In this document: positions 2,226 to 63,500 of the stretch, piece after piece
Layout of the letters: each line of letters begins with the position of its first letter
Position numbering within the stretch: the stretch's first letter is position 1
Assembly (NCBI RefSeq): GCF_032062105.1
Contig: NW_026938807.1
Location: 372,001-436,000 of the forward strand
Source of the DNA: Saccostrea cucullata
Lineage: Eukaryota
DNA length: 64,000 nt
Direction: 5' to 3'
Notes under the pieces: generated by a model
Told to the model about the DNA's origin: nothing
What the model saw: the letters and a program-made list of their open reading frames with translations, nothing else
The model's database searches: none
Made by a program: the position numbers and the translations under genes

Positions 2226-5200
2226 ATGAGCAGAACGGGTGCAGAAATACGTGCAAGGTAAACGATTGATTAACCTTTATGTTCGCTTATACTCATTACT
2301 TTATGACAATTATGAATGATCATTTATTAAGTCGGATAAGCGGAGGGCTTCTGTTTCATGATTTGACTTGTTTGCAAGTTTGTTTACTCAAGGTATGGGT
2401 CCCAGGGACCAGGGCAGTAAACTGAGATAAATACAGTATAAATTAATAAGTTATTTGTTCTTACTTTCAAGACAATTATTTGTTTTATTATAAGATTTGT
2501 CATTTCTCATTTATTGAGACAAGAATTGATGTTCCTTGGTTCAGAGTTCCTGACCCAGCCAAGGTTAGAACAAGTTGGTCTTAAAATGGAAATGCATCAC
2601 ATCTTTAATCAGAAGTCAGATTATTTAGCATGTTTAACAGGCAAACTCGTGGCATAATTTTAATGACCAAGTTGATGTCGACTAAGATTGTGAAGTTCTT
2701 GTTCCCGAGGTCCACTATATATGTGGGGGTAGGGAGTTGGTTAAACTGAAATTCTTTGTCTGTCAGACAAATACTTATAAGATTGTACTGTACAGTTAGT
2801 GTCATAGTAATGGACTTAATATCAGGTGTTTAACACACATATAATGGTATGGGTGTACTTAGAATAATCTAACTCAGTGTCTCAGGAAAAATCAGGTCTC
2901 TAAGACATTTATCATTTTAATGATGGAACATTTATCTATAGGGTGTACTAAATAAGCACTTAACAGTAATTTTTAAATTAGAATAAATTTAGGGTGTTTG
3001 AAGACTGCTTTCAGAGTATATGGTCTTGTAAAAGTTTACAACAGCAAATAAAATCTTAACTTAAGAAATTCTGTGATATATATGTCAATTAGAGTTTTAT
3101 ATGCTTTTAAGCAAACAAAAACCAAACCAAAGAAGCTGGATTAAACGAATGATGGGTAATGATTCTAAAGGGCAGTCCAGGTATATTGTTATGTTACATT
3201 CTTTGTTTATTTTGGCTAGCATAGATTATGTTTGTACTCCAGAGAGGCATGTTATTATTTCTCCTGCTTTTATCACTTGTGCATGTGAATTGTATAGTAA
3301 GGACAGCATGTTGCATGAGCATGACAGAGACAATACCTGTACATGTGGGGGAAAGGGGGTACCTTCATTTAGAATTTGGTTGTATACAATATCTGATATT
3401 GTAACCATGTTTGATATGCATATACCTAGTATTTAATATTGCTTGCTTGTAAAAAAAAAAATGATTTCAGGGATTATATATTTTTTTATTGCGATATTAT
3501 AATAATACTTAGTTTTGTAAATGCATTATTTACAGTCCTATTATTATAAGGTAATTTATTTGATAATGTTTTATTTTAGGTAGATATACTAATATCATTA
3601 ATTACTACCTGTACCAAAATGTTATACCTCAAATATGAAAAATATTAATGTTAACCATTTGAATGCTGCTCCATTAAAAATGATAAACCTAATTTTTAAT
3701 GCTTTTCCTTTTTACTACCATTAAATGGCTAGAATAGACCTACTGCATGTCTTGATTCATGTAATTTCTTGAAATGTAATTAATTTATCATTTGGATTAA
3801 ATGTGCAGCTGCTAAACTAAAAATCTGTGTTATTATGTTTGGTGTTGGGTCTCAAATGAAACAAATCTGTTGATGTAAAACAAACACATGAAAAAAAAAA
3901 TGAAAAGCAGAAGTATTAAATGCTCAAAAACCAAAAATGGCTGATGTAATATGCTATGAAAGAATGAATCATTGACAAATGCTGTAACACATTTCATCTT
4001 TAGCCCATTAGAATATACATACATCCTTACCATGCTTACCATTTAAATTATAATGCATGTTATTGATACTCATACAATTGTTGACTGTGACAATACAATG
4101 ATGAATAACTAGTTCTCATTGCAAGTGATTAAGACAAATCAATGTTGTTTATTTATGTACCATTTACACATGTTTGTGTACCCAGGTGCATGTTTATATT
4201 TGAAATATTTATGTCTACTTTTGTCCATGGTATTATTACATGTATTTATTTTGGTAAACTGAAATTATTAACAAACCTCGAATTTATTATTGAAATAATG
4301 TATAATGGGAAATTTTAGTGACCTTTCAATTTTAGCTTATATTAGCAATATAGCTACAGAAATGCTGTTCCCTGGTTGAGAAAATTTTGTCAGATAATAC
4401 TAGTTCATCTGTCCAAATTTTCTCAGTTAGAGAGGGAAATTCCTGGAATGCTTGAAAATGAATGTCTCTAAAAAATTATAGCTCAAATATTGTCGTTTGC
4501 TGGTCACTAAAATAACCCATTATATAGTATCTATATTGATATGCCTTCAATTGCTCTTATTATTGTTTAATTATTTTATCCTAATGGTCAACAGATATGA
4601 AGTAAATTAATGTTATTATTCTTTTTACCCTTTTAAATTTTGTATTCTCAGTATCATTTAACTAAAAACCTTTCAATATGATAAATCTATATTTTAAAAG
4701 GACACGTAAATTATTTTTGCAAAACATGTATCATGTGTATATCAGATTTCTGCCTGAACTTTAATATTTTTTCTGCATCTGATCTTGCAGTGAGAACAAA
4801 GTCAAGCTGATACAAGAGCGTATAAACCTTGTGGAGCGACACTTTGGTCAGCTGTGTGATGATGTGGCATCTTACACGCGGAAATGTGCCCGCCTCAGGG
4901 ATAAAGGTAAAATATAGCAGTGTGTGACGATGTGGCATCTTACACACGGAAATGTGCCCGCCTCAGGGATAAAGGTAAAACAGCATCTCAGTATCATCAT
5001 TAACATCAGTAATGGTACCTTTCAGGATAAAGGTAAAATAGGTAAAATAACAACTGAAACATCAATGAAGGAAGCTTTTATGATAAAGGGAGAAATATCA
5101 GCTGTCTTATCAGTAAAGGCCTTTAGAATAAAGTAATTAATGTAGCAGTGCTATTACATCATAAAGGTAGGCTATTAAAGATAAATAGATTCTGTTCTCT

Positions 5201-8200
5201 CTCTCAAGAAAGCATTAGGGACAATATAAATCATTAATCGTCATTATTATGTAGGTGAAAGAAGTCTAATATTAGTAATTGTAATTGTCAAGGTTAGACA
5301 CTCTGTATTCTGTGATTATTAAACACAGAGCAACCAATGTCTCTCCTGCATATGCCCTAAACTTTCTGAATGCTGAATACAAAGTTATAAAAGTAATCAA
5401 TTTTCTGTATGTCAAGGTAAAGGGAGTATCAAGATCACTTACTATGTCTTATCATCTTGCAAAATAAAAATCATTTACATATTTGAATGTTAGAACAATA
5501 TGGAAGATAAGAATTCTTGTCTGGACAAGGTGGTAATAGAAAAGCATGAGGATCATTCAGTGTATATTCCTTCAATGGAGACATAATACACTGTATAAAG
5601 TAGTCGCAATTAAGATTTCCTAAAAGAGGAATGAATCAATCCTAGCTGTGATCTTCCTCTAGGTTGACAATTGCTTGATACTGCCTTACTGGGTGTCACT
5701 TTAGAAGCTCTAGTGTATGTTGCCATAAGATATTGTCCTACATCCATAAAAACTACAATGAACATCATGAACATACAAGTATAATTTTGCTTTGCTGTAG
5801 GTGATCAGATAGCGAAGGACCTGGTGGATTATACAGATGCTGAGACCTATAACCCCAGTATGGTCAGGTCACTGTCAGAGTTTGCTTCAAATCTGTCTTC
5901 AGTTCAGGACTACAGACAAGCTCAGGTACAGACTTATTAGATGACTGTAAACAAGCTCAGGTACAGATTGGTGACAATGTCTTATTACATGACTGTAAAC
6001 AAGCTCAGGTACAGATTGACGACAGTGTCTTATTACTTGACTGTAAACAAGATCAGGTACAGATTGCTGACAATGTCTTATTACATGACTGTAAACAAGA
6101 TCAGGTACAGATTGGTGACAGTGTCTTATTACATGACTGTAAACAAGCTCAGGTACAGATTGGTGACAGTGTCTTATTACTTGACTGTAAACAAGATCAG
6201 GTACAGATTGATGACAGTGTCTTATTACATGACTGTAAACAAGCTCAGGTACAGATTGGTGACAGTGTCTTATTATATGACTGTAAACAAGCTCAGGTAC
6301 AAATTGTTGACATTGTCTTATTACATGACTGTAAACAAGATCAGGTACAGATTGCTGACAATGTCTTATTACATGACTGTAAACAAGATCAGGTACAGAT
6401 TGGTGACAGTGTCTTATTACATGACTGTAAACAAGATCAGGTACAGGTTGCTGACAAGCTCAGGTACAGATTGGTGACAATGTCTTATTACATGACTATA
6501 AACAAGATGAGGTACAGGTTGGTGACAGTGTCTTATTACATGACTGTAAACAAGCTCAGGTACAGATTGGTGACAGTGTCTTATTACATGACTGTAAACA
6601 AGCTCAGGTACAGATTGGTGACAGTGTCTTATTACATGACTGTAAACAAGCTCAGGTACAGATTGGTGACAGTGTCTTATTACATGACTGTAAACAAGAT
6701 CAGGTACAGATTGGAGACATTGTTTTGTTCTGTGACAAGCTCGGGTATGGATGGATGACATCGTCTGGTTACATGATTGCAAACAAGAATAGTTACAGTC
6801 AACAGACATTGTCAGATTACAGTTTTATTAACAAGTTCAGGTTCAGATAGGAGACATTGCCTAATTTCAATACTTTAATCAAGCTCAGGTATAAAAAGGT
6901 GACATCATGTTTTCCATGACTTTAAACAGCTCAGGTATAGAAAGGTAACTGAACAAGCTTAGTTAATTGTAAAATGACATTATCATATTATGAGATTGCA
7001 TTGTTAAATGACATTGCCTCACTGCAAGACACATATGGTTTATTGAAGAAATTATATCCACTTTTTATTTTTGAACCAGAATTTATGGGGTTCTTCTTTC
7101 TTCTCTGTTAGTCAAGATTTGTCTAGAAAACAAATCTTAGTCCTATAAGGATTGCTTTTGTTAATTTTTTAATACATTTAGATATAAATGATTAATTTCA
7201 TGACATTAAAAAGTATCATTCTTCAATGTAGGTAACAAGGCTGGAAGCCAAGGTTCTAACACCTCTTGCAAATTATGGACTAAAATGTAAACAAGCTAAA
7301 AATGATATCAAGGAGGGAATGAAGACACAAGAACTAGAAGTCACCCAGCGTAAGAAGCTGGAAAAACTGCGACAGAAAGCACCTGCTAACAGAGCCCAGC
7401 TGACAATGGCCGAGACAGAGCTACAGAAAGCCAGCGTCAAGGCATCAGCCATCACAAAGAATCTAGAACAGCTGATTGATAAATTTGAGGAGGAGAAATT
7501 AAAAGATCTAAAGGTATATTGGATAGGAACAGATGGATATCACACATTTACATAAAGTATTTCCTACTGCAAAATAATGTTAATACACATGTACTTATCG
7601 ATATAGGGAGATCATTGTGGATAATGTTTAATTTGATTTTATTAAACCAGTATTTCATTATCATTCATTCCTTACAGAAACAAAATGAATAAAGTGTTCC
7701 ATAATGATAAACAATTGTACATCTGAATATACATATATTTATAGTACATGAAATAGTAATCTTGTGATTTTATGCTCAGAGTTATGAAATAATTTATTTT
7801 TGTTTCACTTCAACAGAAAATATTGACAGACTTTGTCAACATTGAGATGATCTACCATGCCAAAGCTTTAGAAATGTACACAGAATGTTTCCAGAATATT
7901 AAATCATTTGATTTGGATGAAGACGTAGAGGTATAAACAGTGTAAAATTAATCAGATATGTTTTCTAAAGCCAGTTTGAGACTCAGGTGGGATTCACTTC
8001 TGGAAGTTGGTCCATCCATTTTAAATATGTTATATGTATCTGCATATTGAATTAATTAGTAAAATTAATTTGGATATAGATTTCTTAAAGGCCAAGAATT
8101 TTTTCAATTTCTTGATTCATATAAAGTTATCATATATTCATTACTAGTACATTGTAACTTTTTAATTCATTAGGAATTTAGGTCCAAAATGCAGCCATCA

Positions 8201-10196
8201 AATTCTGCCACCAGAATGAACATGGTGAGGTCTTCCTCATACACATCGCTGGAGTCAGCGGAGGACCGCCCCCCACCGTCCAATCTCCGACGACAACAGT
8301 CGGCCCCCACCAGCCGTAATGTCACCCCCACCAAGTCAGCCAACACTAGTGCCTCATTACCTCTCAAGTCCACTGTGGATTCCAGGGTACAACCATATGT
8401 TTTATGCTCATCTAGGCCTTTCTCGTCAAAATGTGTCTTACTTTTTTAAAACAAAAATTCACAATCTTAAAAATTCCTAAAAGTGTAAATGGAGACAATT
8501 TTATTATTCTATTCTATACGTTTTCGTCTGTCGTCGTGCGTCGTGTGTCGTGTGTTAACATTTGAACATTTTCAGCTTCTTCTCTGCATTTACTAAAACC
8601 AATTTCAACCAAATTTGGTATACAGCATTAATGGGTGAAGGGGAACAAAAATTGTGAATTTCATGGTCCTTGCCCCCGTGGGTACTCGTGGGTGGGGCCA
8701 AAACCACTAAAATTAGTGCAATCAAAAAAATAATCTTCAAGTGGTATTTCTAAAATTACTCCTGGACATCAAAAAGTCAAACTGTTGGCATGAATGAAAT
8801 GAGCATTGAGTCCTCTACCAAAATTTTGAAATTCATGGCCCCAGGGTCAGGGGTTCTAGTGTTAGGGTGGGGCTATATAGATTATATAGTGAAAATACAT
8901 TAATTCTTAGAAAATCTTCTTCTCTGCTTCTGGGTATTTAATAAACTAACTAAGTACATAGTTATGGTGAGCAAGAGTGCTTCTTTCAAAGTTATGAAAT
9001 TCATGGCCCCAGGGTCAGGGGTTCTAGTGCTAGGGCGGGGCTCTATAGATTTTATAGTGAAAAGACATTAATTCTTAGAAAATCTTCTTCTCTGCTTCTG
9101 GGTATTAAATAAACTAAACTAAGTACATAGTTATCATGAGTCTCAAGACCACCCTATTTTTTGGCTGGTTCATGGCCCCTGGGTCAGGGGTTTTGTCATT
9201 TGGTGTGTGTGTGGGGGGGGGGGGGCTCTAATAATTGATTATATAGTGAAAATATATTAATTCTTAGAAAATCTTTTCCTTTGCTCCTAGGTATTATGCC
9301 AATGATCTAAGTATATATATTTATGATGAGGAAAGGTGCATCTAGCATCGAGCAAAATGATTACTTTCATGCCCTGTGGGTCAAGTATTTTGGGGAGGGG
9401 GGGGTATTACATAGTCTGAAAATAAATCAATGCTTTGAAATCTGCTCTTTGGTATTAATCAACCATTTATGATGAAATAAAATTTGATAAAATTTCCAAA
9501 ATTTTGAAATATTTGGCCCAGGGTCAGTGGTTCCTGTGGGGTGGGGTGCACAACTGGTTATAAAGTGGAAGTGCATTTTCTCTTTGTTATTCTGATCTAC
9601 CTCTGGGTATTAAGTAACTAGAGTAAGCATGCTAAGTGTATAATTATGATAAGCAATGGTGCCTCTTTCAAACTTGTGAATTTAAATCATGGCCCCTGGT
9701 TTAAAACGCGAACCAAATTCAATTGTTGGAAAGTTGTTACATGATACTCAGGTGACCTATAAGGCCCGTGGGCCTCTTGTTATATCAAGGGATGTAGAGA
9801 TTCATATTTTAATTACCTGTATTTTCAAGTTACACTGTAGTTTTCTGTGAAAAACTTGAAATGCATGTAAATAGAGCAAATTGAGCACTTGAGCTTGAAG
9901 TCCATGAAAATCACTGTATTATATTACTGGTAATGCATTTAGTACACTATAAATACAATCTGATATTTTAGAATGGTTTGGATGATGAAGAATCGGAGGA
10001 AGATGAAGATGATGAAGAGGAATCTGATGACGACGACGATGATGATGATGATGATGATGACGATGAATACACAGAGACGGAGACAGCTCGTACAGAGACA
10101 GCTAGATCCACCGCACGGACAGACAAACCATCAGGTCAATCAGAAAAGACTGTCATTAGGCCGCCCTCTAGTCTGATAAAGAAGGTCTCCCAGTGA
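2226..10196 (+). CDS. CIBAR1: FAM92/CIBAR BAR-domain protein (Chibby interactor, ciliogenesis), ~368 aa
   Basis: GT-AG exons 2226-2257, 4791-4906, 5801-5925, 7232-7513, 7817-7930, 8174-8386, 9972-10196 join in frame (1107 nt). Motifs VERHFGQLC, RKCARLRDKGD, VQDYRQAQVTRLEAKV, AETELQKA, IEMIYHAKALE match FAM92. C-terminal poly-Asp/Glu tract. Confidence 0.93.
4296..4529. mobile_element. MITE (Tc1/mariner-like, TA-flanked), ~230 bp
   Basis: TATAATGGGAAATTTTAGTGACC (4301-4323) is an imperfect inverted repeat of GGTCACTAAAATAACCCATTATA (4502-4524). Internal hairpin at ~4378-4424. Confidence 0.7.
4850..4985 (+). repeat. 68-bp tandem duplication of FAM92 exon-2 3' end plus donor site
   Basis: GATGTGGCATCTTACAC(G/A)CGGAAATGTGCCCGCCTCAGGGATAAAG|GTAAAA occurs twice (GT at 4907 and 4975). 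Decayed ATAAAGG echoes continue to ~5170. Confidence 0.9.
5910..6950 (+). repeat. 48-bp minisatellite seeded on the FAM92 exon-3 donor
   Basis: Unit ATGACTGTAAACAAG(C/A)TCAGGTACAGATTGGTGACAGTGTCTTATTAC. 17 AG|GTACA copies follow the real donor (5926) up to 6704, then decayed copies to ~6940. Confidence 0.95.
8500..9781 (+). mobile_element. Helentron-associated non-autonomous element (HINE-like) with ~166-168 bp satellite array
   Basis: 5' CGT/GTC microsatellite (8525-8555), tandem AAATTCATGGCCCCAGGGTCAGGGGTTCTAG units ~168 bp apart, and 3' end CTCAGGTGACC...AGGCCCGTGGGCCTCTTGTT hairpin. Confidence 0.8.
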
Positions 10197-12492: not shown

Positions 12493-12650
12493 AAACAGAG
12501 GCCTATGGGCCACATCACTCACCTGAGTTTTTAAGCTTCAGCTGGAAAAATGAGAAAAGTTTAAAAATAAATTGGTTTTGGGGAGAGGAGGTCATGATTT
12601 GAAAAACTGGATTCTACATTACTGAGGATGATTCAACATAAATTTCATTT
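12493..12650 (-). mobile_element. HINE-like terminal fragment
   Basis: AACAGAGGCCTATGGGCCACATCACTCACCTGAG is the reverse complement of the terminus type seen at 9747-9781. Confidence 0.6.
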
Positions 12651-14387: not shown

Positions 14388-15437
14388 TTAGCAGTATGGC
14401 ATTAAATCATACCCCAAAAGCATTTCAGCTATTGGCTCACTCAAAGAAAGAAGCTTGAAGGGTGGGTGCTCACATATCATTTTTGCATGAGGCAGTGAAT
14501 CTGTGATCCAGAAATTTTCAAATTTGACTTCAGAATCTATAAACTTTCTCCAGGACTCGTTAGGAAACACAGCATGGGTGACATAGGCACTGACTTTTAC
14601 TGCTCCTTTCTCGTACAATGCTTTGGCACACTCTCGCAGTGTTCCTCCAGATTGAACCAGATCGTCAATGATAAGAACATGTTTTCCAGCAGGGTTTCCG
14701 TCTTTGACTTTCACAATCCTACGATTGCCATCCCTGATCTTAACACATGTAATAGGATCGTCACCAGGAAAAAAAGTGTGGAACCTTTTGCATGCTCCAT
14801 CATCAGGAAATGCAACACTCATGCTGTTAAAATCAGGCAGGGTTTTCATTTCCCTCAGCAATAGAGGAACAGCAGATTCAAGCCTTGGGATGACATTGTC
14901 TGAGAAGTAAAATCTTTCTTGAAGTGCATGTATGTCAAATATGACAATCTGAGCTGGCCCTTTCGTTGTCAGTGGTATGCCTGATAATAATGTTGCCATA
15001 GTTTTTGCTGTAGCTATCTGCCCCTCTGTGTCAACACGTTCCATGGTTCCAGTTGGAAAATAAGGCATTATGAAGTGAAAGGAACGCGCTAAATATCTTG
15101 GGAACATGTACAGAACTGACAGCTGCTCAAAAACAATATCGGGAGAGTGGAAACTCCCAATGAAGATGACATCCTTTCCTGCCATGTATTTGACATCCTC
15201 AATGAACAAATTTGGAAACCCATCTGGAAAAGATTTCCACTTAATGGTTTTTCTGAACTGGACTTCTCGGGGTCTAGAGACACTTCCCGAAATTGAGAAA
15301 GAACGTACACCACGGAATACTTGCTTCTCCTCCTGCTGTTCTTTCGGACGAGTAGAACATATATTGGCAATATTTTCTGCTAATGCTTCCATTGAAGGAT
15401 GTGCATAGAGCAGAACTGGGCTGTCATCCCCATTCAT
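14388..15437 (-). CDS. Ribose-phosphate pyrophosphokinase, class II (plant PRS3/PRS4-like), 349 aa, no coding introns
   Basis: First ATG at 15437 (the ORF-track start at 15458 is TTG within a likely acceptor TTTTGCAG). Motifs WKSFPDGFPNLFI, PYFPTGTMER, DIHALQERFYF, AFPDDGACKRF, IIDDLVQSGGT (PRPP loop), SAYVTHAVFP, FWITDS are characteristic of class II PRS rather than animal PRPS1/2. Confidence 0.92.
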   Translation of the reverse strand: MNGDDSPVLLYAHPSMEALAENIANICSTRPKEQQEEKQVFRGVRSFSISGSVSRPREVQFRKTIKWKSFPDGFPNLFIEDVKYMAGKDVIFIGSFHSPDIVFEQLSVLYMFPRYLARSFHFIMPYFPTGTMERVDTEGQIATAKTMATLLSGIPLTTKGPAQIVIFDIHALQERFYFSDNVIPRLESAVPLLLREMKTLPDFNSMSVAFPDDGACKRFHTFFPGDDPITCVKIRDGNRRIVKVKDGNPAGKHVLIIDDLVQSGGTLRECAKALYEKGAVKVSAYVTHAVFPNESWRKFIDSEVKFENFWITDSLPHAKMICEHPPFKLLSLSEPIAEMLLGYDLMPYC

Positions 15438-18500: not shown

Positions 18501-19259
18501 TTTTAACTTGAAAACATCTGATAAGTAAACGAAAGGATAAAGATTTTCATTTAATTCTGAAATTCTGTTTCATTTCATTCGTAAAAGCTTAGCAGAAGTT
18601 ATGGACAGTGCCATGATCAGTTAGTGAAGAAATCTGTTTGATTCAACTTAATAAATAAATAAGTAAATAAAGCGCATCGGACATCTATACAATAACTTCA
18701 TTTGCGAAAACATATTGATTTAATTTTCGTATAAAATTGTTCATGTATTTCGCGAAAACCGCGAAACCTTTGCATTATTTAACGCATAACTTTCGAGTTA
18801 TAAAGCGGAACTTTTGCGATTATAATAAACGTGTTCTAAACATTTGCTGTAAAACCGAGACATTTGCACAAGTTTTTAAATTCTCTTTTTACCCGTTACA
18901 TTGTGTCTTTCTCAACGCTGTTCAGTCTATGCAAGTTTTTCAAAAGTAAAAAGGTATATTAATTATTATAAATTTCGGGGGAAAGATTAAAAAAAAAGTT
19001 TTGAAAAACGTGACAAGCGGAGATCTCCCTGAGAAAGAAATCAGTCTAAAGAATCTCTACGATTCTATAAATGAAAAAAAATATTTAAAGAAATATTCAT
19101 TTTATCTATTAGTAGGGTTTTGAAAAAAAGTGCAAAATTCTTTATACTAATCTGTTCTATATTCTTGCATATAATTTCTCTTTTACATCATCTGAGCAAT
19201 GTCAATAATAAATCGATAGAAGTTCCCGTCTACGTTCATGTTTCTCATCTGTCAGTCAA

Positions 19260-34466: not shown

Positions 34467-34869
34467 CTTCTTTGGTACCCTTCTTCTCTATAAAAAGAAG
34501 TAAAATAAAAATATAATTCAGCATAATTATAAGTTGCAGCAGCAGCACAATATCATTTGTTTGTCATTCTATCATGTCTATGGTTATCTATGGTACTTGT
34601 AAACTAAAGACATTTAGAAGTAAAATCTGCAGTCAAAGTAAGAGATATAGCAATGAAAAGAATATTTTACAATATTGATTTGCAACCATCAGCATAGGGA
34701 AAATTAGCTTCTCTTAGAGCAACACTTTTGTAGAGAGGTAACTAATTTTTCAAAATTTAAATAAATGATGTCAGGGGGTTGTTTAAAATCGTCGTTTCAA
34801 AATCAATCATGCTATATTTCAAACTTCAATTTCAAACAAATACAACATTATTTAAAAAATAAAGTACTT

Positions 34870-48561: not shown

Positions 48562-51500
48562 CTAATGCATTTCATTTGTCTCGGATTCTCGTAAACCTGA
48601 GGAAGCTTGCTGATTCTGTTTTGGTTGCATACAAGATCGAGCCACGGATTCAAACAACCTGAAAAAATATTACGACCATAATTAGTACAAAACTTTTTAT
48701 AATTAAGTTTCATCCAAGGACATCATGCATTCAAATATGTATCATTTTTTTAGTTTGTTTGCTTGAAACAGCATTTGAAAAACCAAAACTGTATATTACA
48801 GATGCTACTTTGTCTTCTCTTTATATCCAACACTTGCTTCTTTAAATCTTCCCAGAATCTCACATTTTTACTGATGAGTAATTGTTATGAAGAGGACAAC
48901 AACAAAACTATGTGGTACATACTTTTCTATTTCAGGTGCACAATGGACAAACTCATGGTTCCAGAACTTAAACTGGGGATTTTTGATCAGCTCAATAAAG
49001 GTGATGAGAAGTCCCCAGGGATGTGGCCGGTTTACAATTAGTCTCTCCAAAAGAACTCTACAATAAAAAGTTTTGCATTAACTACCGAAGCAAAAGACGT
49101 TAAAAAAATTTGAACTGTAAAGGTATGTTACACCCTGAATCAATACTGTTGGCAAACCAAGACGCTTGAATAAACATCAACTACAATATCAAACTCTTGA
49201 ATTATCAAGACGTGCCTTTGAATGAAATGGCTTGAAAAATATACCTAGTTATTTGCTCTTGAATGGCCTCGGTGTTTGCTTCAGCAAACAGGTACAGAAG
49301 AGTACAGCTGAAGTAATGGGTGTGACTGTTGGGATACCTCAGCTGGTTAGCAATGGCAGTCAAAAACAGGTAACGACCTACAAAAGTCAACAATAAAATT
49401 TACTTTCTTCTGTATTGTCAGTACTTTCTTGCTCACTGAACACTAAATGATGGAAAATTCTTTTCTTGTGACAAAAAAAATTCCATAAATTTAATGAGTA
49501 TCACAATCATTTTCTCCCAATATGAACACAACAGATTTATGCATTAAATACATGTCCATGAAGGACTTCAAATGACAGGCTGGTTTTACCTTCTGTATCT
49601 AAGGCCACAGCGAGGTTCTGGAAGATGTCCATGTGTGCAGAATGGGCAATTGTACTCATACTTGGAGTCAGGCCTTTTCCGTGTATGAACTGTATAGCTT
49701 GAGTTCCCACATAGAGCACTAAGGCATTCATTAGTTGAATGTTGTACCGCGTACCTGGCTCACTGGACTGTTGTAAAATATTACAGATAAAAACACAATG
49801 GAAGTTACAATGTCTCACGAATTGAAATACATAAACATATACAAACATCAAGAATCAGAATGGACTTTAGTACCTGTAGGTAACTTCTAAGGTCTGATAC
49901 AAATGTCACAGGTGATCTTGACTTTAAATAAGAGTCTAAATCCTGCAAAGAAAAGTAGACATTTCAAATCTAATGCCAGTTCTTCTGTAGTTCCTATTTC
50001 AATTAAGCATCTTTCACAAATTAATGTGGAATCATTTTAAGATGGTGAGCCAAATTTTAACTAGGTCATAGGGATACAAGTTCAAGGGTAGCTCTTACAT
50101 GCATACTTGCTTACACTATTGTTTTGTGCGGATGTGTCTTTATTGGTAAGGGTAATATTAAGCAAGGTTAGCCATATCTGCTTTCTAAGTTTCAGTATAA
50201 TATTTGACTTTACCAATGATAAATCATTTGTTAAATAACTACCTATATACTTAACACTTAAAACATAAATTCTTTGAACCCTACCTTCTTAAACTGAGCA
50301 GGCTGTATCTTGCTTGCAAAGTTGATGAGAATGCGGGGTGGATTTGAGATGTCTGCCAGCATGTCTACCTTTAGGTGAGGTGTAAACGGGTCAGGAAGCC
50401 GCATGTTACGAGGGAAAGCACTCAGAATTAAATTACGCATCTGAACACAGTTTGGTGGAATGACATCACAGAATCCATAATGGTAATCACAGAGGAATTC
50501 TGGGAAGTCATGAAGCAAGACCAGTAACACCCGAAGTGTGCCCTAAAACATTCAAAACATTGAAATCATAATTCAAAATGACCTGCAAAAAATTAACACA
50601 ACTTTCATAAAAGGTACCAATCATATTTACACTAACATGTATGGTGACTTTTTATGCAATGATTTATGTTTGACATAAACTTAGAGATACAAGTTCTTCG
50701 ATGAAAAATCTTTTGAGGCTAATATCTCAATTAAAAGACAGGGTTTATAAAAGACTCTTGCTTAAACAGGTCCCTGTGAAATTGTTTAAAATATATAAGT
50801 GCATATAGCAGAAGTATCCATCTAATACAATAAATTACCTTGTACAACATCTGAGTGGGTTTAGTGAGATCAGCATTTCTCAGAAATGGAGCCAAGAACT
50901 TGAACAAATCAATCAACAACTGGGCATACATTCCCCATCCCTACAAAAATATATACAACTCATATTTCAGCAGCCTTACCATCTAAGCCATTTTTGTTAC
51001 AGTAGAATTCATTTACTTGAATGTAAAATGCATAGAAAATCTGTACGCATTTATGTCAAAGTTTCAGATACTCAGTATGCATTTTATGTCAAAGCATCAA
51101 AAACTAACTTTCTGTTGAGGTGTCAGAGCAAGCATTCGACCAATGAAGACACGATGAGAAATAAACTCCAACCATGCGTAGGAAAATCCAGGGGATTTGG
51201 CAGGTCTTAACACGTGGAAAGTATTGCTACAAAGAAAAGTTCATCTTTATATATCATTTAAGACACATATATATAAACTTACATATAAATTAAATAAACA
51301 ATGTAATCCAGTAAAATGAACTGGCCAGTGACCACTGTCTTTGACAATCCTTGGATGTTCTTACCAGAATGCGGTGAGGACCTGATAGTTAATGTTTTCT
51401 AGGATATGTTCTGGTGCGTTCAGCTCAATGAAGAGCATGATGAAGATCCTGTGATAAGGAAGTTGTTGGAATTCAGACATCCTCACGATGTGATCCTGTA

Positions 51501-54500
51501 GTAGAACTCCGGCCACAATCCCTAGTACCTACAGTAGCAATGCAATGGTTTAACATTAAATTACATGTAGCTTCTCTATACCAAACATTATCAATATAAA
51601 TGTACATGTACTTTGGTTCTAGGAGGTCTAAGAGAGTTGTTCTACAATATACATTTTTTAAATCTCTCTTTATTATTTTAAGAAATAAACATGTTAATGA
51701 ATTTTTAACAATTTCTCTCTATAATTAGCATTACAAACCAAGATTTCAGCCCGTAGCCATACCTTGTTGAGGAGATTTATTTTTGTTACGGTGTTGGCAT
51801 TGTCTCCTGAGTGTTTAATCAACAAGGCAATGAGGCGGACAAAGGCATCCAGCGTGTAGAAACACTTGGCTCTGATTAAGGCCTGGTTTGTGGAGGGTGT
51901 AGCTTCACCCATGGCTCTGTAGCACAGGTCTACACACATCTCAGAGCAGAGACGGAAGAATCGCGTTATCACATCATCATTCTTCAGTATACCCTGCTGG
52001 TGCATCTAAAACACAAGAAAAGAAAGCCTTCAGTCAAGTAAAAAATAGCCATTTAAACACCAACCAGATGTCTCCTATGTGACTGTACTTGAAAAAATAC
52101 TTGCTCCTTGACTTGAAATAGAATTTGTCTAATCTAGACACCACTGGTAAAATAGAAATAAGCCAGATTGGACAAAATTCTGAATTACAAAATTTTAAAC
52201 CTGGATGTACTGAGAGGGACTTAAGTTTAAATCATATAAGGAAAGGTTTCAGAGAATATCACATAAAGATTTAACAAGTTGTACTAACTTTTCTTTCATA
52301 AAACATACCATTTCTTAATACATTATATGAATAATGAATATCCACAAAATGTTCTTTAAAATGCACCTATATATAAAAAAAACTTGATTACCTGTTGTAC
52401 AAATGCAGTGAATGCTTTAGTACTGTCCCTCCCAGCAGCAGGGGAGTGGTACATATTGACCCACTCCCTGAGGAGGTACTCGGCTTTCTCGTGAAGCCCC
52501 GGGGGATCCCCATCTATGTCCCTGGCCTGTATGATCCCCGTGTGCATCATTCCCGAGGCAGCTTTAAAAGCCGCAGTCTGGTCCATTAGGTTGAAGTCCG
52601 AGCTAGGAGCGGTCCCACTGCCACTGTTACTGCTTCCTCCCCCACTCGTGGAGCGCAGGTTGTCCAGCAGGGTCTGTAATCTGTTGATGAAAAATATACA
52701 TGTAGTTATACAATCATTTCATACATGTATAGGTAAACAAACAAACACTTGTTTTTAATCAGTATTTTAACAGAAAACTTCAATATAAATAAATATTTTA
52801 ATTAATTGAAATAGAATTTCAAAGGTGTCAAGTATAAAATATCAACAATATTTTTTTTAGTATAAATGCATATAAAGATAGATCTCATCTACATATTTCA
52901 ATCTAAATATATATATTTGTCTTACCCTTCCGGTGGGTTAATGGACCGGGTTGAGAGGGCACTCAAAACCTCTATTGTATTTACAAAGTCAGCCTGCAAA
53001 TAAAAAAATCATACAATTTACACAAATCAATTTGCTGTTTATATGATAGAAATGACAAATTTACACAAATCAGATTGCTGTTTAGATGATAGAAATGACA
53101 AAGTCAAACACAGCGTAATAATAACCCACCTCAGTAAGTCCAGCATTATTTTTATCACCAATGCAGTATCTCTGAATTAACTGCATAGCGAAAGCCACGG
53201 CCATGTAATTCATTCCGTTTTCCATCAGTTGTACTATGTACATGTCATACTGGGACAGAACCACCAGCTGGCTACGAATGAGACAATCCAGAGCTTCCAA
53301 GTTATACTTGGGTTCATCCGTACGCTCAACGAGAGCTCGAGTCACCTGCTTCTTAAGCCAAGCCTGGCCGTACGCCCGGGATTCTCTTAAGCATTTTAGA
53401 ACCAGAAGGTGGCAGTCACGGAAGTGACTCATCAGCTCCTGTTCCGTGGTATTGTTGGTGTAGAATTCCAGGAATCCACTCACCGTCTTCTGCACCAGAG
53501 TCTCTATGGAAGCCATTTCTCTACTACTTCGTGAAAACATTACTGCATCTAGTAATTTTCGCAACTGGTTTCCTAGAGGATTCGATGGGGGGATCATCAT
53601 TGTTTGAAGCACTTGTTCAATTTCCATTCCTATCTTCTCCAACATTTGAGAAATTTCATCTGGCTGGACCTAAAACAAACATTCAGACATGCATCTACAA
53701 ATTCAGAAATACTCTACATGCATTGACATTATTGCAGTGATTTAAAAAATTTAGTATGAAAGTTGACCTGGACTTTCCAGTACACATATTGGTAGACTTC
53801 TATGTCAAAGCTTAGCCCACTAGAGACTGTGCAACAATTTGGATCTTGCTTAGGAACACAAACAGAAAATGTATGATAAGGAACTCCTTAGTGTACTTCA
53901 AAATCTATTTGACTTACAGGTGTGGGTTTGGCCACAACAGCCTGCGGCGTCTCACTGGTTGGGAGAAATCCAGGAATATTGTGAGCAAACTCCTCATAAA
54001 CTGATATTTGAGCTTGAGTTACACCTCCAACCTGTTGATCAAGAAAATAAACATATTTTTCATGATTATTAAGCTACACATCTTTATCTATTTTCAAAAA
54101 TAGAAATATTTTGTCACTGCACCTTTCAGCATCATCAGCTGGATAAGTTCAGCTACCTTTCTGAGATTACCTTTAGTCTGATCTGCTCTGGCATTCTTTC
54201 AGCTTGGTACGTCAGAACCCCAGGATCACAGTAACGTCTGCCTTCATTACGGGCATGTTTACGAAGTTCATATTCCTAGAAAGAAGAATAAAACCCATAC
54301 AGATGTGCACCAGAACTTCTGTATACATGTACATATATAACAATAGAGAATGTTCTCATATACTAATTATTTAATAATCATTGTATTGCAGTTTGGAACC
54401 ACACACATGTATAAATTCATGTGTACATTTATAATGCAGCTTTAGTAGCTTAGAATGGGAAAAAAAATTGTAACAAAAATGATTGAACTTTGGTTCATTT

Positions 54501-57500
54501 TCAGTTTTCCTAGCTATTTAGACAGAGGACTCTGTTAATAAGCGCAGTATCCATGATTTTCTTTCAATACAGGAGCTTAAAAATAGAGACGAGTATCTTA
54601 CTGTAGCAAGCCTCTTGTCCATTTCTGGGATAGCCCTCTCTACAGCTGTTTTCTGTATGAAGACACAGGCTAACTCAGCATTGTCAGTGGCCAGGACAGT
54701 AGCTGCTTGTTCTATGGCATCCTTCTCCTGAGTACTTGCTAACTGTATATCAATGATTTAAGATTTAGGATATAATATAATGAAATATGGCTGATATATT
54801 GCCAAATCGGCATAAAACATTAGCAATCAGTCAATCAATCCATCATAAAAACAACAATTTTAGTGGGGATTAATTGTCCTTGTTTTCCCGGTTTGCAGAC
54901 CCTACACCTGTCCTCCATGAAATATTAAATGTCAAACTACACTATCGCATCTCTTATCACAAAACAAAATCTCCATTGTTTAACCACAAAATAAAATCTC
55001 CATGAACCAATACTTTTTTCCTCAAATCTTAAGACCCCACAAAAATATGTGTTTTTAAAATATGCAATTAATGAGATTTCCATAATTATAATAATTATGA
55101 AGAGTAGTATTTCAGTTGGACTGCATTGCATAAGGAAATAAACACAAGACTGTTAATTTCAGTGGTTACTTTAAATAAATAGCATGTTAAATAAAAAAAT
55201 CATAAATGTTGTGAAGATACAGGTAAATTTAGGAATGCATTTCATTTATGAATTTTTATAAGGATATGACTAGACACTTTCATCCAAACATTTTTTCCAT
55301 GAATTACAAATGCACATATGAAATATTTCTGGGTGAATATCTGGTCATACATTTATACAAAATGAACAGATATGTCATCAGACTTCATCTTGATATTACC
55401 TCTGCTGTGAGTCTGAGTGCACTCATAAATGCGGTTCTGAGATTTGAGGCAATGCTGTGGTACAGAGGTTCCCTGGAGGTGATGAGAGCGAGGGCAGAGG
55501 TCATGTTCCTTATCATGATGTGAGCTGCTGCCCGCATTCTGGTTTCCTCAGGGTCCAATGCAAAATCCTGTAAGGTCACATTTCAAAATTCAATCAAAAT
55601 AACCTTTTTATTTCAAAAAGAACTTTATTTCTCAGTCAGAGTGATGATGAAAGAAACAAAATTGCACCTTTTTGATGATTTGTTCACATGTGGTGAGTGT
55701 GATTTTGTTTGTCCGTTCTACCACTGGTGGCATCAGTTCTTGTACAGACTTCTCAACTGCCATCTTCACCAGCTGCTTCAGTTGTGGATGATTTTGCAAC
55801 AATCCAAGCTACAAGACAGAAACATCAATATTCAATGTTTCTTATTGATCATTTAGCATATTGTATTGTATAGACATCAATTATATGTTTTCAACAAAGA
55901 ATACAAGATTTGCTTATCAGGGTATAAACTCTATTACTTACACTTTTCAGCTTATCCTGTAATTGTTAATTACATGTATTTCAAATTCACTATTTTGCTC
56001 CTAATCTTTTCTTCCATCAAGTAAAATCTTGTTTCACCTACCTGCCCACTTATGTGAATCTGGTAAGCCAAAGTAGCAAAGTTGTTGGTGTTGATCTCCT
56101 CGTAGGCAAACTGGGGCCTGGGTGGCAGATTGGGGGTCCCAGTGGAGGGGGCAGGGGCCGGGGCCGCTGTCGTCGTGGTGACAGTGGTGGTGGTGCTGAC
56201 AGTCGGGGTGGAGGCTGTCAGGATCAGGGACGGTTCAGGCTGGGGGGTCACCACTGTAGGTGGCAGCGTGGGTTTCACCGATGCAGACAATTGAGGTTCA
56301 TGGGTCTGTAGTCTCAGGGTGTCTTTCAAGTAGTTTCCTGGTTTCAGCTCCTTTAACAATAAAGACGGATTTTTAAACAGTTTTTCCCAAATAATGAACT
56401 TGAGATAATTGTATAAAAGCAGCAAAATGAAGTGAATGTAATGATTAATTTTTTTTTAATACCAACACTCACCGATAAGTCTATATTCAGAGTCTTACAT
56501 AGCACTTCTATTTCAAATTTCAGGTTCAGTTTGAGATCTGGCTCTTGATGAAGTTCTGCCAGTGCATTCATGATGGCCATGGTCCAGGGATTTGGGGGTT
56601 TAAAAACCTGTAAATGATTATCATTGAGAACATAATGTAGAGAAATTCTTTGAATGAGCATATCCACCTGGATTCCATGGTGTAAATACTTGAAACGAAA
56701 AGTACATACCTTGCTTTTAGCACACGACTCCAGAACTTTGGCAGTAAAAGGTACAACATACAACAATTCTCGAAAGCTTTTATGGTAGGCCTCGTACAGT
56801 AGACCTTTCAGATCTATGTCCTGCAATAAAGTCACAGGTAAGTTAAGTTCTATGACTGGCCGTATACAATCATGTAGTATTTAGAAAATTCACTACCGAG
56901 ACATTGTTGACTTACTATTTGCAGGATTGGCTTATTTTTAGCTAAGGTTAACATCCCCAGCCAATGACCTAAATTTTTCAGCAGTGTTCTGTCTGAGAAA
57001 TTGGCATCTCCTTTGTCACTCCTCAATAAAACCTGGGGGATAATAACATACATACAACTCATGACAAAACTGTTAGGAAATATAACTTTACAGAATGAGT
57101 ATTGATTAACTTTACGTAGGTATTATCATAGTATAGCAATTAAGATTATGAATGGTACATTTAAGCTTTTTCATGTTTTCTTTGTTCACCGGCAAGTTCC
57201 CTGAAGAACTAAATACTACATTCATTCAAACACTTACCCTGATATTTCTGAAGGTCTCTCTAGTCACCATTGTTGAAAGCTTTGGGATGTTCAAGGCATC
57301 CACAAAGTTGGCATATAAGGTGTGGAAGTTAGGCTCTATACTGGCCCTCTTCATCACCAGATACTGGGCTGCCCAGGGTAGGTAGTCCTCTGTTACCTCT
57401 TTCTTAAACTCCTCTGCCTGTTATCAAAACAATATCAATGAAATATGAATCCAAAATGCATTTGACAACATAACTTCAATAACAGAATAAAGTGCCCCGC

Positions 57501-60500
57501 CACAGCATGATACGCCCGTCAAATATATTGTTCAATAATCATAAATTGGTAAAGGTGCAAAAAAATCAAATAACCTTGATTAACAGATTGACACAGATTT
57601 CAATGATCTAATTTCAATTTCTTATCATGTTTAAAATATTGTACATATATACATCTCTAAGAGACTTACAGTGTAGGGATTAATTATAACAAATAATACA
57701 TCATATAATTCTAAACTGGCTGTGTTAGAACTTAACAAATATCCATCTGCAGCTTTAAATTGTTAATTGCATAATTTTCTGGAATAATGGAAATGCTACA
57801 GTCTAACAAAAAAATCAAAAATACATTATTCTTTAGACTATAAAATTCTAAGTGAGACATGACTGCAATTTGTTGCAAATATATAAAAATTGAAATGTAA
57901 TTTTTTTTCAATGAACACATGTATAATTAGTTTTAATTATATTATACAATACTAATTTAGTTTTAATCATACACTAAAACATCAATTTGTTTTAATTACA
58001 TTACACTAATTGAAAGATCTTTATCTCGGCTATTGCCATCAAGAACTCTTAATTAACACAAGCAACTATGAGGCCATTTCTTTTTGCCCAACTCCCAAGA
58101 GATAACAGCTGAATTAACAGAGATGCTCTTAGACAACCAGTTAACTCCTGACAATAAACTCATTAATTTCTCTCTAATTTGACATGCAATTTCTGCTATC
58201 AAAATTTTTCTTAACCAGTGCTTGATAATTATTCCCATGGGACAAACTGAATTCCTCTCAAAACATTAACATTTGCTACAGTTTGCTGTAAAAGTACATT
58301 ATAATGATGAAAAAAATAAGTTTTTACTTAATTTAACATTTTTTAATAAGGCTTAGTTTTAATTATATTATGCAATATTAATTTAGTTTTTATTATACAC
58401 TGTATTTTAAAGCATCAATTTGTTTCAATTACATTACACCAATTGAAAGATCTTTTTCTGAACTAGCCATCAAGAACTCTTAATTAACACAAGCAACTAT
58501 GAGGCCATTTCTTTTTGCCCAACTCCCAAGAGATTAAAGATAAAGATAACAGCTGCATTATAAGAGATCTGCACTACCAGTCCAGCTCCTGACAATAAAC
58601 TCATTAATTCTCTCTAATTTGACATGCGAATTTCTGCTATCAAAATTCTTCTTGACCAGTGTTTGATAATTATGCCCATGGGACAAACTGAATTCCTCTC
58701 AAAACATTAACATTTGTTACAGATTGCTGTAAAGTATATAATGAAAAAATAAGTTTTTACTTGATTTAACATTTTTAAATAAGGATACAACTATATTTTT
58801 ACATTTTTTAGGATTATGAAATTTAAAATTTTAAAGACTTAGTTTTTTTAAAAAAATTCACTTAAAATTAAGGTCACAGTGACCTTGAAATAGGCCGCGA
58901 CACACCTTCTACCTTAGATGTATAATTTTGCCAAGTTTGAAAGCTCTAGGTCTAATAGTTTTCTAGTTATGAGCCGGACAGGATTTTTCCATATTTGGCC
59001 ATAGCATCTTTATTAAAGGTCACAGCGACCTACTTTTCGTGCATAACACACCGTCTACCCAAGAAGTATCAACTCTCAAAGTTTGATAATCCTAGGTCTA
59101 ATAGTATTCAAGTTATGAGCCGGACACGAATGGACAGACGGACAGACGGACGGACGGACATGAAGCCTATAACATAATACGTCCCGTCTTAAGACGGGCG
59201 TATAAAAACGTTTATGCATAAAAACTTATTTTGTAGAACTACACTTTTATTTGACACTTTCAATTTTTCCTCCATACCTTCTGTGACATGTTGGCCAGTG
59301 AGAGATTGTTGAAGATAAAGAAGACTTTGTCCTGAACTGCCTCCGGGGGAACAGAAAACTCTTCCTTCCCTTGACCAGCCAGCAGGGTATCAATATTTGT
59401 AGCACTTGCAATGGAGGGCTGTGGAAATTCAGTGACCTTTGTTAAATCTTATAGTATGAAGACAGAAATATTAATATTCTGTTTTTACGTTAAAAAAAAA
59501 AGAAGCTCTCAATTTCAAAACTGTTTATCATGAGTACCTTTACATTTTTTATTTTTTACCTACAAGAATACAAACTGATTTTCAAAACAAAAAGAAAGAA
59601 CCAGTAAACCTACCAGACCTACACAAAGCCTGATATTACCTTTGGTAGGGGTTTGGCTGCTGGTGTTGAGGAGGGGATAGGTGTGGACACGGTGGTGGTG
59701 GGAACTCCCTCCTGACTAGATCCTGCCACACTGGGTGTGGGGGGCCCAGCCTGCTGCATCAAACCCAGAGGTCCGGTCTGCAGGCTGGTGAGACCCAGCC
59801 CCCCGACTGTGGGGGTAATACTGCGGGTTGCTGGAGGCTGCTGAGGGGGCTCCTGGGACTGGGCTCCATACTTCACATACTAAAATAAACAAAACCACCA
59901 TTAAAAGTGTACAGATACTGATGCTAAAGATGAATGATTATTGGTATTACTGAACATGAAGCAAGTAAGTCAATTTATTCCTGTGAAATCATAAATTTTT
60001 GTAGGGGTATAATTTTCATTGTTTTTAAGATATGAAGAAACCCATGAATTCATGTCCACCACAAAATGTCAAGTGTAATAAATACAGAACTTCTCAACAA
60101 TTATTACATTCCCAATGACCAAGAGTTTTTTTGTCAAACCTCGGAAAATTGGACTCCACCAAAATATGTGATTTTAGAGTCTATTTCTGATCAGATAGAG
60201 AAGATAATGTTTAATTGCAGATATCACATTTTTACCTCAATAAGATGCTGTGGAAATTGGAGAAAATGTGGAATAGCTGCCAGATGTTGACAATACTGAG
60301 GGTAATCTTTTAATCTGAAAAGCAGAGCACTCATGAAGTCTCTTATATCTAAATTAAGAATATACTGTAGAAACAAAGAATTTATATTCTGCATGCTTCC
60401 TTCCTAACACACCTTGTTTTAAATCTGTCTAATGCCGCAATTCCAAAGAAATACATCTTAGAATTGTGCTGCTTCTTCAATGCCTCCAATACATATCTCA

Positions 60501-63500
60501 GAGCGATTCCCAATGCCATGTACCTAGTAAATATCAATTTGTTTAGCTTAGGTATTTCAAGATTAAGTATCAAAAGAAATTATTAAATACATAAATTTAT
60601 GCAAAGTACTTGTACATATTAACATGCAGACATAATCTATCAAATGTATATACATGTATCATCACCATATCTTTTGCTTCGAAAGAGTGGCAAAAAAAAG
60701 AACAGGAAAGAATTTTTTCCCCTGCAATTCACCTAAAGTAACTGCGAGACACAGTGATAACATTTTAAATCTTGCCTCTATAAGAAGGAAATATTATTAA
60801 TTCTCTAACCTCTGTAGTCAAGAAACAATGTATCTTACGTTGCTAATCCCTTTTCAATGATCCCTCCAAACAGCACTGCTGTTGTGTGTAGCTCTCTCTC
60901 CGGGTACTGAGGGAAAAATCTGTACTCCTCAAACAGGTTCCTTAGCATACACTCGTACACATCCTACAAATAACAATAAAAATCTGTACTCCTCAAACAG
61001 GTTCCTTAGCATACACTCGTACACATCCTACAAATAGCAAGCACTGTAGAGAAACTCTATATATTCTGGATTTTCTTTTCAAAATGCTTTCTTCATTTAT
61101 TTACATGTAACATAATTATAACTTCAATTTTAATTTATTTTGATATCCTTAATTACCCACTGTTGAACCATTAACTTTTATCGACAGTCTAGTGAGTCTA
61201 CATTTAGTGCTGATAACCTATCCATTTACACATGTAGCTATTACTGACAGCAAAAACCTAAACTATAATAAATTAAACAAAACTGACCTTTTCTTTTTTG
61301 TCTGGAGAATCTTTGAATCTCTTCAACATGTCTAGCACTTCATCAATTGACATTGTAGGTGTTGGGGGTTGGTTATAAATCCTCTGAAAGTAAGAGTTTG
61401 CTTCATCCTCCACCTCTTTGGAAAACTGCTGCTGAATATCTGGGAATATACTGGATATGTCTCCCGTTGTCTGTCCTACTATACAATTGAAAGAAAATTA
61501 ACATATTAGTATCACTTTAAAATCATTGTAGTATAAATGAAAACAAAAATTTAGGATCAATGGGTTTTTTTTTTTTTGCAATGTTTAAAATTTTATGAGA
61601 CAATAAACTAATTCAAAAGACATATAATTTATTTTTATACAGAAATTCTGAAGATCATTTTAAGGATAAAAACTTCTGTATTAAATTTTTAAAAACATTT
61701 TTACTTCAAGTAAAAGCAAATTCCAAACTATACATGTAGACCAATGCTATTCTACTTAATCAAAACTAATGACTATTGATAATAAATGTAAGTAATGACT
61801 GTACCAGAGAACTGACCGGGTCTGGCCACAGTCTGGGGCCCCAGGGGCTGTTGTTGGCCCAGGGTGGGGGGTGTGGGCTGCTGAGGGGGTGCTCCCTGTG
61901 GGGGTGTGGGCTTTAGCATGGTCTGTCCCACTAGTGTGTTGATTCCTGGATTTCTTGGGGGTGCCAGAGGATTTGGAATGGAAAGAGCTGCAAAGAATTG
62001 GCCAATCTCAAATTATTTGATATGAATAACAGATTATCAATGCATAAGAACTGTAGGGCAATTAAAATCAGGATCACAGTTTTCACTAGAGCTTACACTG
62101 AAGCTGTGATGTTATGCCCTGCAGTCCTGTGACAGATGTGGGCTGTGAGATCTGCTGGAATCCCGGCTTGGCTGGGGACCCTGGGGTCGTGGTGGAGGTC
62201 AGGGGAGCGGCTAGTCCCTGGGGAAACCCCGAATTCCCCACAGCACTCATGCTCCAGGACTTGGGAATTCCTAGAGGATTGCTCATATTGCTCTCACCGA
62301 TATCCAACTAAAAATACACAAAGAATAGCTAATTGACATTTCTTTTAAAATGCAGTAAATATACACTGTACTTGATTATGAAAATTGTCCTTAATTTGAA
62401 GTTTTTGATAAATTTTAACATTTTATGACACTTGGCATTTATAGTTTTAATCAAACAATTAACCTCTTCCTTCTGGATACCTACTTACTAAAGTATTGAA
62501 TATTATTAAAACTATTCCAAGTTCAACAAAATGAGACTTACAGGATTACTGGGAGGTGGGGGCATGGTTTTGGGTCCCGGTCCAACAACTCCTGGAGGGG
62601 CCTGTCTGGCTTTGTTTATAATCATTGCGGCATTAGTTACCATGGTTACAATGGCTTCTGACAGTTCCTGGGATACTTGACTGTAAAATACAAGGGCACA
62701 TATGACAGGTAACGTGGGTAAAACTATTATAATCAGTTTCTGTTAATCATCTTTTACTATCACAATAAATTTCTCTTTTTATATTAAACAATCTGGGTAT
62801 TTGCCATGCAGGGAAAAGAAGCAGTCTTGGCCATATACATATAATTGTAAAATGTGTGTCAACCAAATGAGCAAATATTTCAGGTTTTAATTATGAAGCT
62901 TCTTCAGTCACTTTCACTTTTCCCATTAACCCCCGAAATGAAAAATCTACTACCTTCTAAGACTACTGATCCTGAAACAAGATTAAATATGTATGAGGTA
63001 TGACTATTTGTTACTGGTATAATGGTTACAGACTCTTTTTACCAGTGAAGTTCTATCTTTAGTACCTAGCACACTGCTGGAGACAGGATAACATGGTGGC
63101 TATAGTTTCTGTTGGTAACATCTGACTCTTTATCTGAGGCTGGTTCTCGTCTTTACTGAGTCCCCCCACCAGCTGAGGACATCTACGCTTCAGGAAATTC
63201 ACACAAGTCTGGATAAAGGGCTCCTGAAAACATCAAATGCAGCAATCAACAAAATAACTTACTTTATTACTAGAAAAACATGATTCAGCAGCCTATCCCC
63301 AAAGCTGAATTGTTGGAAAATAATATACCGGTACATGATAGAAGGAACACAGTAACAGATTTTACAGCTATAGCACTTACCCCATGTTCTCTGATCTTGT
63401 CAGAGAGCCACTTGTCCAGTTTGAGGTATTCTCGTCTGGAGGCCAAACATGCAAGGTCAATCACAAAGGCAAAGGGAGTGGCATTCAGCAGCATCGATAA

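Follow-up and report, generated by a model that had tools for sequence, protein, structure and literature searches.

Why should tandem duplications in an oyster genome lie across splice junctions? The question is raised by 64,000 nucleotides of the Saccostrea cucullata assembly GCF_032062105.1 (contig NW_026938807.1, positions 372,001 to 436,000, forward strand), hereafter the window, 64 kb of a 1.17-Gb assembly. An earlier note, made from the letters alone, had described four tandem duplications across exon/intron boundaries in the FAM92, TBC1D31 and CNOT1 genes, and had offered either a mutational process focused on splice sites or survivor bias as the explanation, together with a link to the AGGT model of intron gain. 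All four duplications proved to be real, as judged by Tandem Repeats Finder (TRF), gene models, homologues and RNA, and a fifth, at a CNOT1 donor, had been overlooked. Recurrence beyond one locus was also borne out, both in TRF arrays outside the window and in genome-wide word counts. The central result is that, outside the window, arrays of at least three copies span predicted donors far more often than expected, and that neither acceptors nor two-copy duplications at donors share in this excess.

Anatomy of the junction-spanning arrays

The five arrays of the window are the following:

4853–4980 (+): two-copy duplication of a 68-bp unit at the donor of FAM92 exon 3, with the native donor at 4906/4907 and a decoy at 4974/4975 (TRF: 1.9 copies, 96%)
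5893–6760 (+): 48-bp minisatellite at the donor of FAM92 exon 4 (5925/5926), with 17 decoy donors and a degenerate tail to ~6950 (TRF: 5933–6723, 791 bp, 16 copies)
22040–22626 (−): 39-bp minisatellite at the last TBC1D31 donor, put at 22603/22602 by homologues only; unit of 24 nt of exon and 15 nt of intron (TRF: 587 bp, 15.1 copies)
60914–61040 (−): two-copy duplication of a 64-bp unit at a CNOT1 acceptor (60963), with 50 nt of exon, identical in both copies, and 14 nt on the intron side (TRF: 2 copies, 98%)
63618–63689 (−): the fifth case, 2.9 copies of a 25-bp unit at CNOT1 donor 63681/63680, with 9 nt of exon and 16 nt of intron

A real junction lies inside each of the five units, as placed by spliced models, oyster homologues and RNA contigs. 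The two FAM92 exons, labelled 2 and 3 in the earlier note, are coding exons 3 and 4, owing to a 69-nt coding exon at 3112–3180 (+) that had been missed, and that is supported both by spliced RNA and by the Saccostrea protein P0002. The 68-bp unit comprises 54 nt of exon and 14 nt on the intron side, of which six match the native intron and eight are filler, whereas the 48-bp unit holds ~33 nt derived from the exon (21 ungapped) and ~15 nt of intron. A shortened first unit of 35 bp links the 48-bp array to its donor, and the start given by TRF thus falls 8 nt inside the intron. The intron-side share is 14–16 nt in all five units, and a short non-matching filler of 5–8 nt, which later substitution could also produce, is found at the join of both two-copy cases. 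Behind the 68-bp duplication, at 5021–5170 (+), there are more degenerate echoes of the exon-3 donor word, on the second haplotig as well, which possibly represent an older, decayed array.

With 791 and 587 bp, the minisatellites of FAM92 and TBC1D31 are the largest two arrays of period up to 150 in the window, and the claim that its two largest non-transposon minisatellites span junctions stands for this range of periods; larger satellite-like arrays (20487–21417 and 39757–40329) match other loci. Four of the nine arrays of period 25–150 that are not transposable elements (non-TE arrays) cross a predicted junction, where 0.95 would be expected, a comparison made post hoc. Two further two-copy duplications, at 43225–43291 (34 bp) and 53015–53102 (43 bp), are intronic, 10 and ~21 nt from the junction, and do not reach across it, and a 441-bp two-copy duplication (87%) is located within a CNOT1 intron at 57975–58784.

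Excess of multi-copy arrays at donors

The GC-matched TRF test proposed earlier was run on 1.6 Mb outside the window, in nine contigs with multi-locus repeats masked; the sample was drawn from the contig of the window and from around chaperonin genes. C1272 and C1336 were left out of the analysis. Exons were taken from an in-house generalised hidden Markov model (GHMM) predictor which, trained outside the window and scored on the window junctions, reached a precision of 0.76–0.89 and a sensitivity of 0.44–0.81 (thresholds 3–12 and 0). Arrays with at least 30% multi-locus coverage (190 of 495) were removed before counting. Prior to curation, a junction is spanned by 11 of the 91 non-TE arrays of period 25–150 against 3.2 expected, or by 9 against 1.9 with stricter exons, and there is no excess among arrays of period 12–24 (3 of 190 against 2.6). 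The automatic hits were judged case by case by eye, which left 10 credible, and for the background, 10 of the 68 arrays of at least three copies were excluded as overlapping predicted exons without a credible junction.

In the curated set, arrays of at least three copies and period 20–100 span eight of the 354 predicted donors, where 0.47 would be expected under a flat null and 0.59 under a GC-matched one (P = 2e-7, or 3e-6 without a borderline case). The enrichment is ~14-fold (6–27), and ~2% of predicted donors carry such an array (95% confidence interval 1.0–4.4%). No excess is observed at acceptors (1 of 360 against 0.55), nor for two-copy duplications spanning donors (the TRF set has none, with 0.65 expected, and a 14-fold enrichment would have given about nine; an in-house duplication finder yields one additional two-copy donor case), nor for arrays starting 3–150 nt into the intron (1 against 2.3 at donors and likewise at acceptors). 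The proposed focus of mutation on splice sites, and with it the test of enrichment, is therefore supported for donors and multi-copy arrays, and not supported for acceptors or for the two-copy class. Survivor bias on its own is excluded, since arrays across donors lie above the GC-matched rate for non-exonic DNA, while intronic arrays close to the junction are not raised.

A wider reading with no donor focus would trace the excess to survivor bias, to GC content, to a shielding of exon flanks from deletion or to artefacts of the exon predictor. It draws on the imperfect predictor, on the curation by eye (at least six of 14 automatic hits looked false), and on the raw edge profile of the in-house finder, uncurated and with two-copy duplications included, which gives only 1.4–2.1 against 0.86 per 10 kb, on both junction sides. 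This profile is much flatter than the curated result, which places the signal in the multi-copy class. Moreover, survival cannot raise a class over the neutral rate for introns, neither GC matching nor the control of adjacent intron DNA explains the excess, and the word counts described below are independent of the predictor, with many anchors backed by Pfam; an absence of donor focus is accordingly considered unlikely.

Donor words across the genome

Triplets of splice-site words (three words spaced 18–48 nt) were counted over the whole genome on both strands, the counts being overlapping matches and not loci. The donor word AGGTAAG forms 3268 triplets, whereas its reversed word forms 335 (5074 against 1191 for pairs), and outside arrays it is the reversed word that is the commoner of the two (232 against 168). 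For AGGTGAG, the triplets number 2084 against 855 over a background of 157 against 86, which leaves only a 1.3-fold difference after scaling. The acceptor words give 512 against 451 (TTTCAGG) and 1467 against 953 (TTGTAGG).

When individual loci were read, an exon end proved to be the start of 13 of the 17 distinct AGGTAAG arrays (10 by predictor or Pfam and three by eye; one of the 13 via an opposite-strand donor), whereas predicted donors make up 34 of the 206 AGGTAAG sites in the sample. All five of the AGGTGAG loci read also start at an exon end, compared with 16 predicted donors among 161 sites. The AGGTAAG word is thus insufficient, because sites that are not donors seed far fewer arrays per site. 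Pfam supports 10 of the 35 anchor exons (E ≤1.1e-4), mostly up to the junction, with matches to chaperonin (twice), MUN, Rubicon, GH38, carboxyl transferase, formin, 5'-nucleotidase, DNA polymerase A and VWC. Since AGGTAAG is present at 20 of 421 donors, and ~17 array loci occur in the first 1751 of the 23869 contigs, a rough extrapolation would put the donor arrays of the genome at a few thousand, haplotigs included.

In five of the 35 donor units, only 2–5 bases come from the exon, and three of these reach ~20–45 copies, so that exon-like sequence is not required. This bears on the main rival explanation, in which duplication or expansion would be faster throughout methylated, germline-expressed exons, and only the copies that cross a donor would survive, the others breaking the reading frame. 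Such exon-wide seeding plus filtering accounts for donors over acceptors and for the lack of an excess on the intron side. It is also in line with the low observed/expected CpG ratio (0.27–0.54) in five of six array-bearing 20-kb blocks, with the intron side of 21–30 nt in six of seven multi-copy acceptor units (partly by eye), and with the CNOT1 acceptors, of which the exon-proximal one (60963) preserves the frame, whereas the upstream one (61027) would truncate the protein. However, units with so few exon bases expand nevertheless, two-copy duplications are not enriched, and GC matching moves the expectation merely from 0.47 to 0.59. As a proxy for methylation, the CpG ratio of 0.41 in the six blocks, compared with 0.51 in 39 others, is no significant difference (P = 0.3). 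Exon-wide seeding is for these reasons regarded as doubtful, even as the leading competitor.

Several regions outside the window hold more than one array. In the region of a carboxyl-transferase-domain gene (C1160:36000–54000; L193, L222 and L225), there are three long junction arrays, one at an acceptor and two at donors, and similar arrays recur further along this contig. Two arrays per gene region are found in the chaperonin gene of C9465 and in C1751, C1348 and C14951. These cases hint at gene-level hot spots. Around one exon at L185 (C574:79300–80200), nested acceptor-region duplications adjoin a donor array of three copies.

Alleles, transcripts and the fate of the decoys

The 68-bp FAM92 duplication is also borne by a second haplotig (L002), on which the 48-bp array has ~4 good units, compared with 17 in the window, next to a flank of 97.5% identity. 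The 48-bp array is hence a length-polymorphic variable number tandem repeat (VNTR), differing about four-fold between haplotypes. It is also present in DNA contigs of a related organism, B, at a depth of 490 against ~50, whereas the 64-bp CNOT1 duplication is absent from them. No second haplotig was found for the TBC1D31 and CNOT1 cases, and both rest on this assembly alone. Assembly error could be suspected most readily for the 64-bp CNOT1 duplication, given its identical 50 exon bases, its single haplotig and its absence from organism B. Nevertheless, both FAM92 arrays are found on two haplotigs that differ allelically, one of these arrays in the DNA of another organism too, and the units of the arrays differ mutually by 4–18%, which makes it very improbable that the duplications are artefacts.

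The RNA evidence consists of assembled contigs (X1, X2, X3 and X14) from other animals or a related species, in which rare decoy use and the state of the alleles are hidden. At FAM92 exon 4, X1, X2 and X14 depart from the first donor, and at exon 3, the first donor is joined to the next exon in X14 only, which is RNA of organism B. The RNA contigs thus show the most upstream donor to be the one used at both FAM92 sites. The duplicated CNOT1 exon appears as one copy in X1, X3 and X14, although those animals may lack the duplication. All joints use old junctions, organism B included, and no new intron is seen in them.

The consequences that decoy use would have differ between arrays. The 48-bp FAM92 unit is in frame and open. 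The second FAM92 donors would truncate the protein if used, with the decoy at 4974/4975 causing a frame shift and a stop at codon 76. In TBC1D31, the GT is kept in all 14 further copies, the 39-bp unit (13 aa) is in frame and open, and the ladder stays open for ~10 units, so that decoy use would add repeats and not a stop; isoforms with added 13-aa repeats are possible on this basis. The 13-aa repeat is absent from the members of the TBC1D31 cluster (anchor motif in 12 of the 13 checked, none named Saccostrea), which says little on this species. In the 25-bp CNOT1 array, the GT has been lost in both extra copies.

These features bear on the proposal that spare donors are positively selected, as back-up sites, as extra U1 binding against premature cleavage or as a source of regulated isoforms, for which the in-frame TBC1D31 ladder would be an example. 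Selection of this kind would yield both donor specificity and high copy number, two of the window units are in frame and open, and some decoys are used in the human genes 6-16 and CBS, as described in PMC1557585. Against it, the GT columns of the decoys vary as the other columns do (0.32 against 0.34 alleles per column; in the motif set, 0.29 against 0.37), the donor columns are likewise no better conserved than the remainder of the unit, and the GT is missing from one or both extra copies of three short arrays. Unit length is a multiple of three in 12 of 33 units, as by chance, and one haplotype has a FAM92 array about four times as long as that of the other. No selection on decoy donors or on frame is seen in these columns and units; the decoys look neutral, and positive selection for them is held to be quite unlikely.

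A fixed intron share of 12–17 nt, striking in the first 15 cases, was likewise followed up and set aside as a rule: among held-out donor arrays found by motif, it holds for 7 of 22 against 3.7 expected (P = 0.06), within a range of 5–41 nt. The basic periods and some intron shares were corrected by eye, as the script had chosen multiples. The share remains a weak lead.

Donor-coupled expansion as the favoured explanation

The observations to be explained are the anatomy of the arrays, the enrichment at donors, the lack of an excess beside the junction, the use of the first donor at FAM92 and the lack of any extra conservation of the GT. They are best accommodated, with a probability of roughly 0.5, by a germline expansion coupled to donors, tolerated through a first-donor rule, with selection thinning the arrays on the acceptor side; selection probably removes exon-internal arrays as well. 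In a first step, the initial duplication would arise at an ordinary rate by end joining or slippage. In a second, duplications at donors would be tolerated, the most upstream donor being used, as in human F7. Two donor copies in a transcribed intron would then grow into longer arrays more rapidly than intronic duplications of other kinds, and the decoys would finally drift as neutral VNTRs, lengthening the introns. The most plausible cause of the third step may be sought in events on nascent RNA at the 5' splice site, such as U1 or spliceosome engagement, polymerase pausing, or out-of-register pairing between RNA and DNA.

Expansion is likely to be favoured at donors because survival bias, by itself, could take arrays no higher than the intronic rate. 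The favoured common factor is a working donor within the unit, with the excess lying in the expansion and not in the first duplication. A bolder proposal, offered tentatively, is that donor-containing duplications in the oyster germline are driven to expand by splicing itself, as the 5' splice site is recognised or cleaved on nascent RNA, that a few thousand donor-echo VNTRs have arisen in this way, and that this is a general, hitherto undescribed route of intron growth that would explain the human cases too.

Several points weigh against donor-coupled expansion. Besides the limited precision and sensitivity of the GHMM quoted above, its final version was trained on the window as well. The eight spanning arrays were chosen by eye, with a clear Pfam match in only three of them (3 against 0.59, P = 0.02), the sampling favours housekeeping genes, and arrays cluster by gene. 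Two of the four cases first noted in the window belong to the two-copy class, which is not enriched outside it. The word counts, as overlapping matches, have to be read beside the control word AGGATAG, which reaches 838 and 1182, largely through one transposon family. Acceptor arrays do exist: four of the 12 non-TE arrays found with acceptor words are anchored at acceptors, against a background of ~11% (P = 0.04–0.09), and two of the remainder are anchored at donors. The RNA contigs, coming from other animals or a related species, cannot reveal rare decoy use or allele state. Finally, all steps of the expansion are inferred, and none was observed.

Relation to known systems

Minisatellites at splice junctions are known from human genes, namely the 37-bp VNTR of F7 intervening sequence 7 (IVS7), CBS IVS13, intron 2 of 6-16, lamin B2 and PDGF intron 4 (Borensztajn et al. 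2006, PMC1557585), and in F7 the most upstream donor is normally used (PMC1557585). The oyster arrays resemble the F7 type, as described there, in a first monomer that spans the junction, in the reiteration of the donor within the intron, and, for FAM92, in the polymorphic length of the 48-bp array and the use of the first donor. Pseudo-donors are reiterated as in F7 in the FAM92 and TBC1D31 minisatellites, but not in the 25-bp CNOT1 array with its lost GT. Unlike the human set described there, a handful of cases in single genes, the oyster arrays involve ~2% of predicted donors, at a rate measured to be above that of intronic arrays; two or three of them are present in several genes, and arrays on the acceptor side occur too.

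In the AGGT model of intron gain, the duplicated segment is exonic and contains AGGT (PMC3443670), and variable repeats at exon–intron boundaries have been proposed in the intron-gain literature as a possible source of new introns. The oyster arrays share with this model the multiplication of splice-site-like words by tandem duplication. In contrast, their units include an existing junction, and the outcome is a longer old intron: homologous proteins align across the window junctions without insertion. Contrary to the link drawn in the earlier note, the window arrays are not intron gain.

Polymerase-theta-mediated end joining generates small tandem duplications and leaves filler as its signature. 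The stretch of 5–8 nt that mismatches the native intron at both two-copy joins could be of this kind; however, this pathway accounts for neither the multi-copy expansion nor the donor specificity.

No genome-wide test of donor-spanning minisatellites was found in the literature, for which the coverage of subscription papers was incomplete. Splicing-associated repeats have been catalogued in PMC10078293, whose passages covered here do not include a test of donor-spanning enrichment. The individual arrays belong to the known human-type arrangement; the new part is the donor-specific and copy-number-specific excess, which needs replication with RNA-based annotation.

Genes and other features of the window

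The window gene models are spliced and free of stops on translation, and together comprise 142 junctions. The genes bearing the arrays are the following:

2226–10196 (+): FAM92/CIBAR-like gene, eight coding exons, 391 aa; supported by homologues and by RNA joints for introns 1–4
21579–34488 (−): TBC1D31 gene, 21 exons modelled, 5' end not found; supported by oyster homologues
48562–63908 (−): 3' part of the CNOT1 gene, 35 exons, open frame of 1947 aa; 11 introns joined in RNA

One FAM92 exon shares 96% identity with Saccostrea proteins and 87–90% with those of other oysters, which marks the genome as of the rock-oyster type. The search for CNOT1 homologues gave no match, the full protein probably being longer than the length searched, and the model rests on its open frame and RNA. 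Further models comprise a presumed Derlin-like gene of eight exons and a presumed dioxygenase-like gene of four; these two names and that of CNOT1, which the earlier note had also used, are assumptions made from sequence features without a database match. An intronless open reading frame (ORF) with a homeodomain-like stretch, presumably TALE-like, sits inside an intron of TBC1D31, in the orientation of that gene (27348–28244, −). A second intronless ORF (14388–15437, −; ~350 aa), contained in RNA-sized runs, is taken to be PRPP-synthetase-like, and a broken reverse transcriptase remnant over several frames at 16968–18502 (−) is presumably LINE-like.

Significance

Donor-spanning minisatellites have hitherto been handled as curiosities of single genes. 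They can also mislead gene prediction, as the GHMM ran through the TBC1D31 array. An excess at donors over the intronic rate means that some property of the 5' splice site favours the growth of repeats, and bears on the question whether local mutation is shaped by splicing and on the lengthening of introns. Oysters would supply thousands of natural, polymorphic test cases of the first-donor scanning rule outside mammals.

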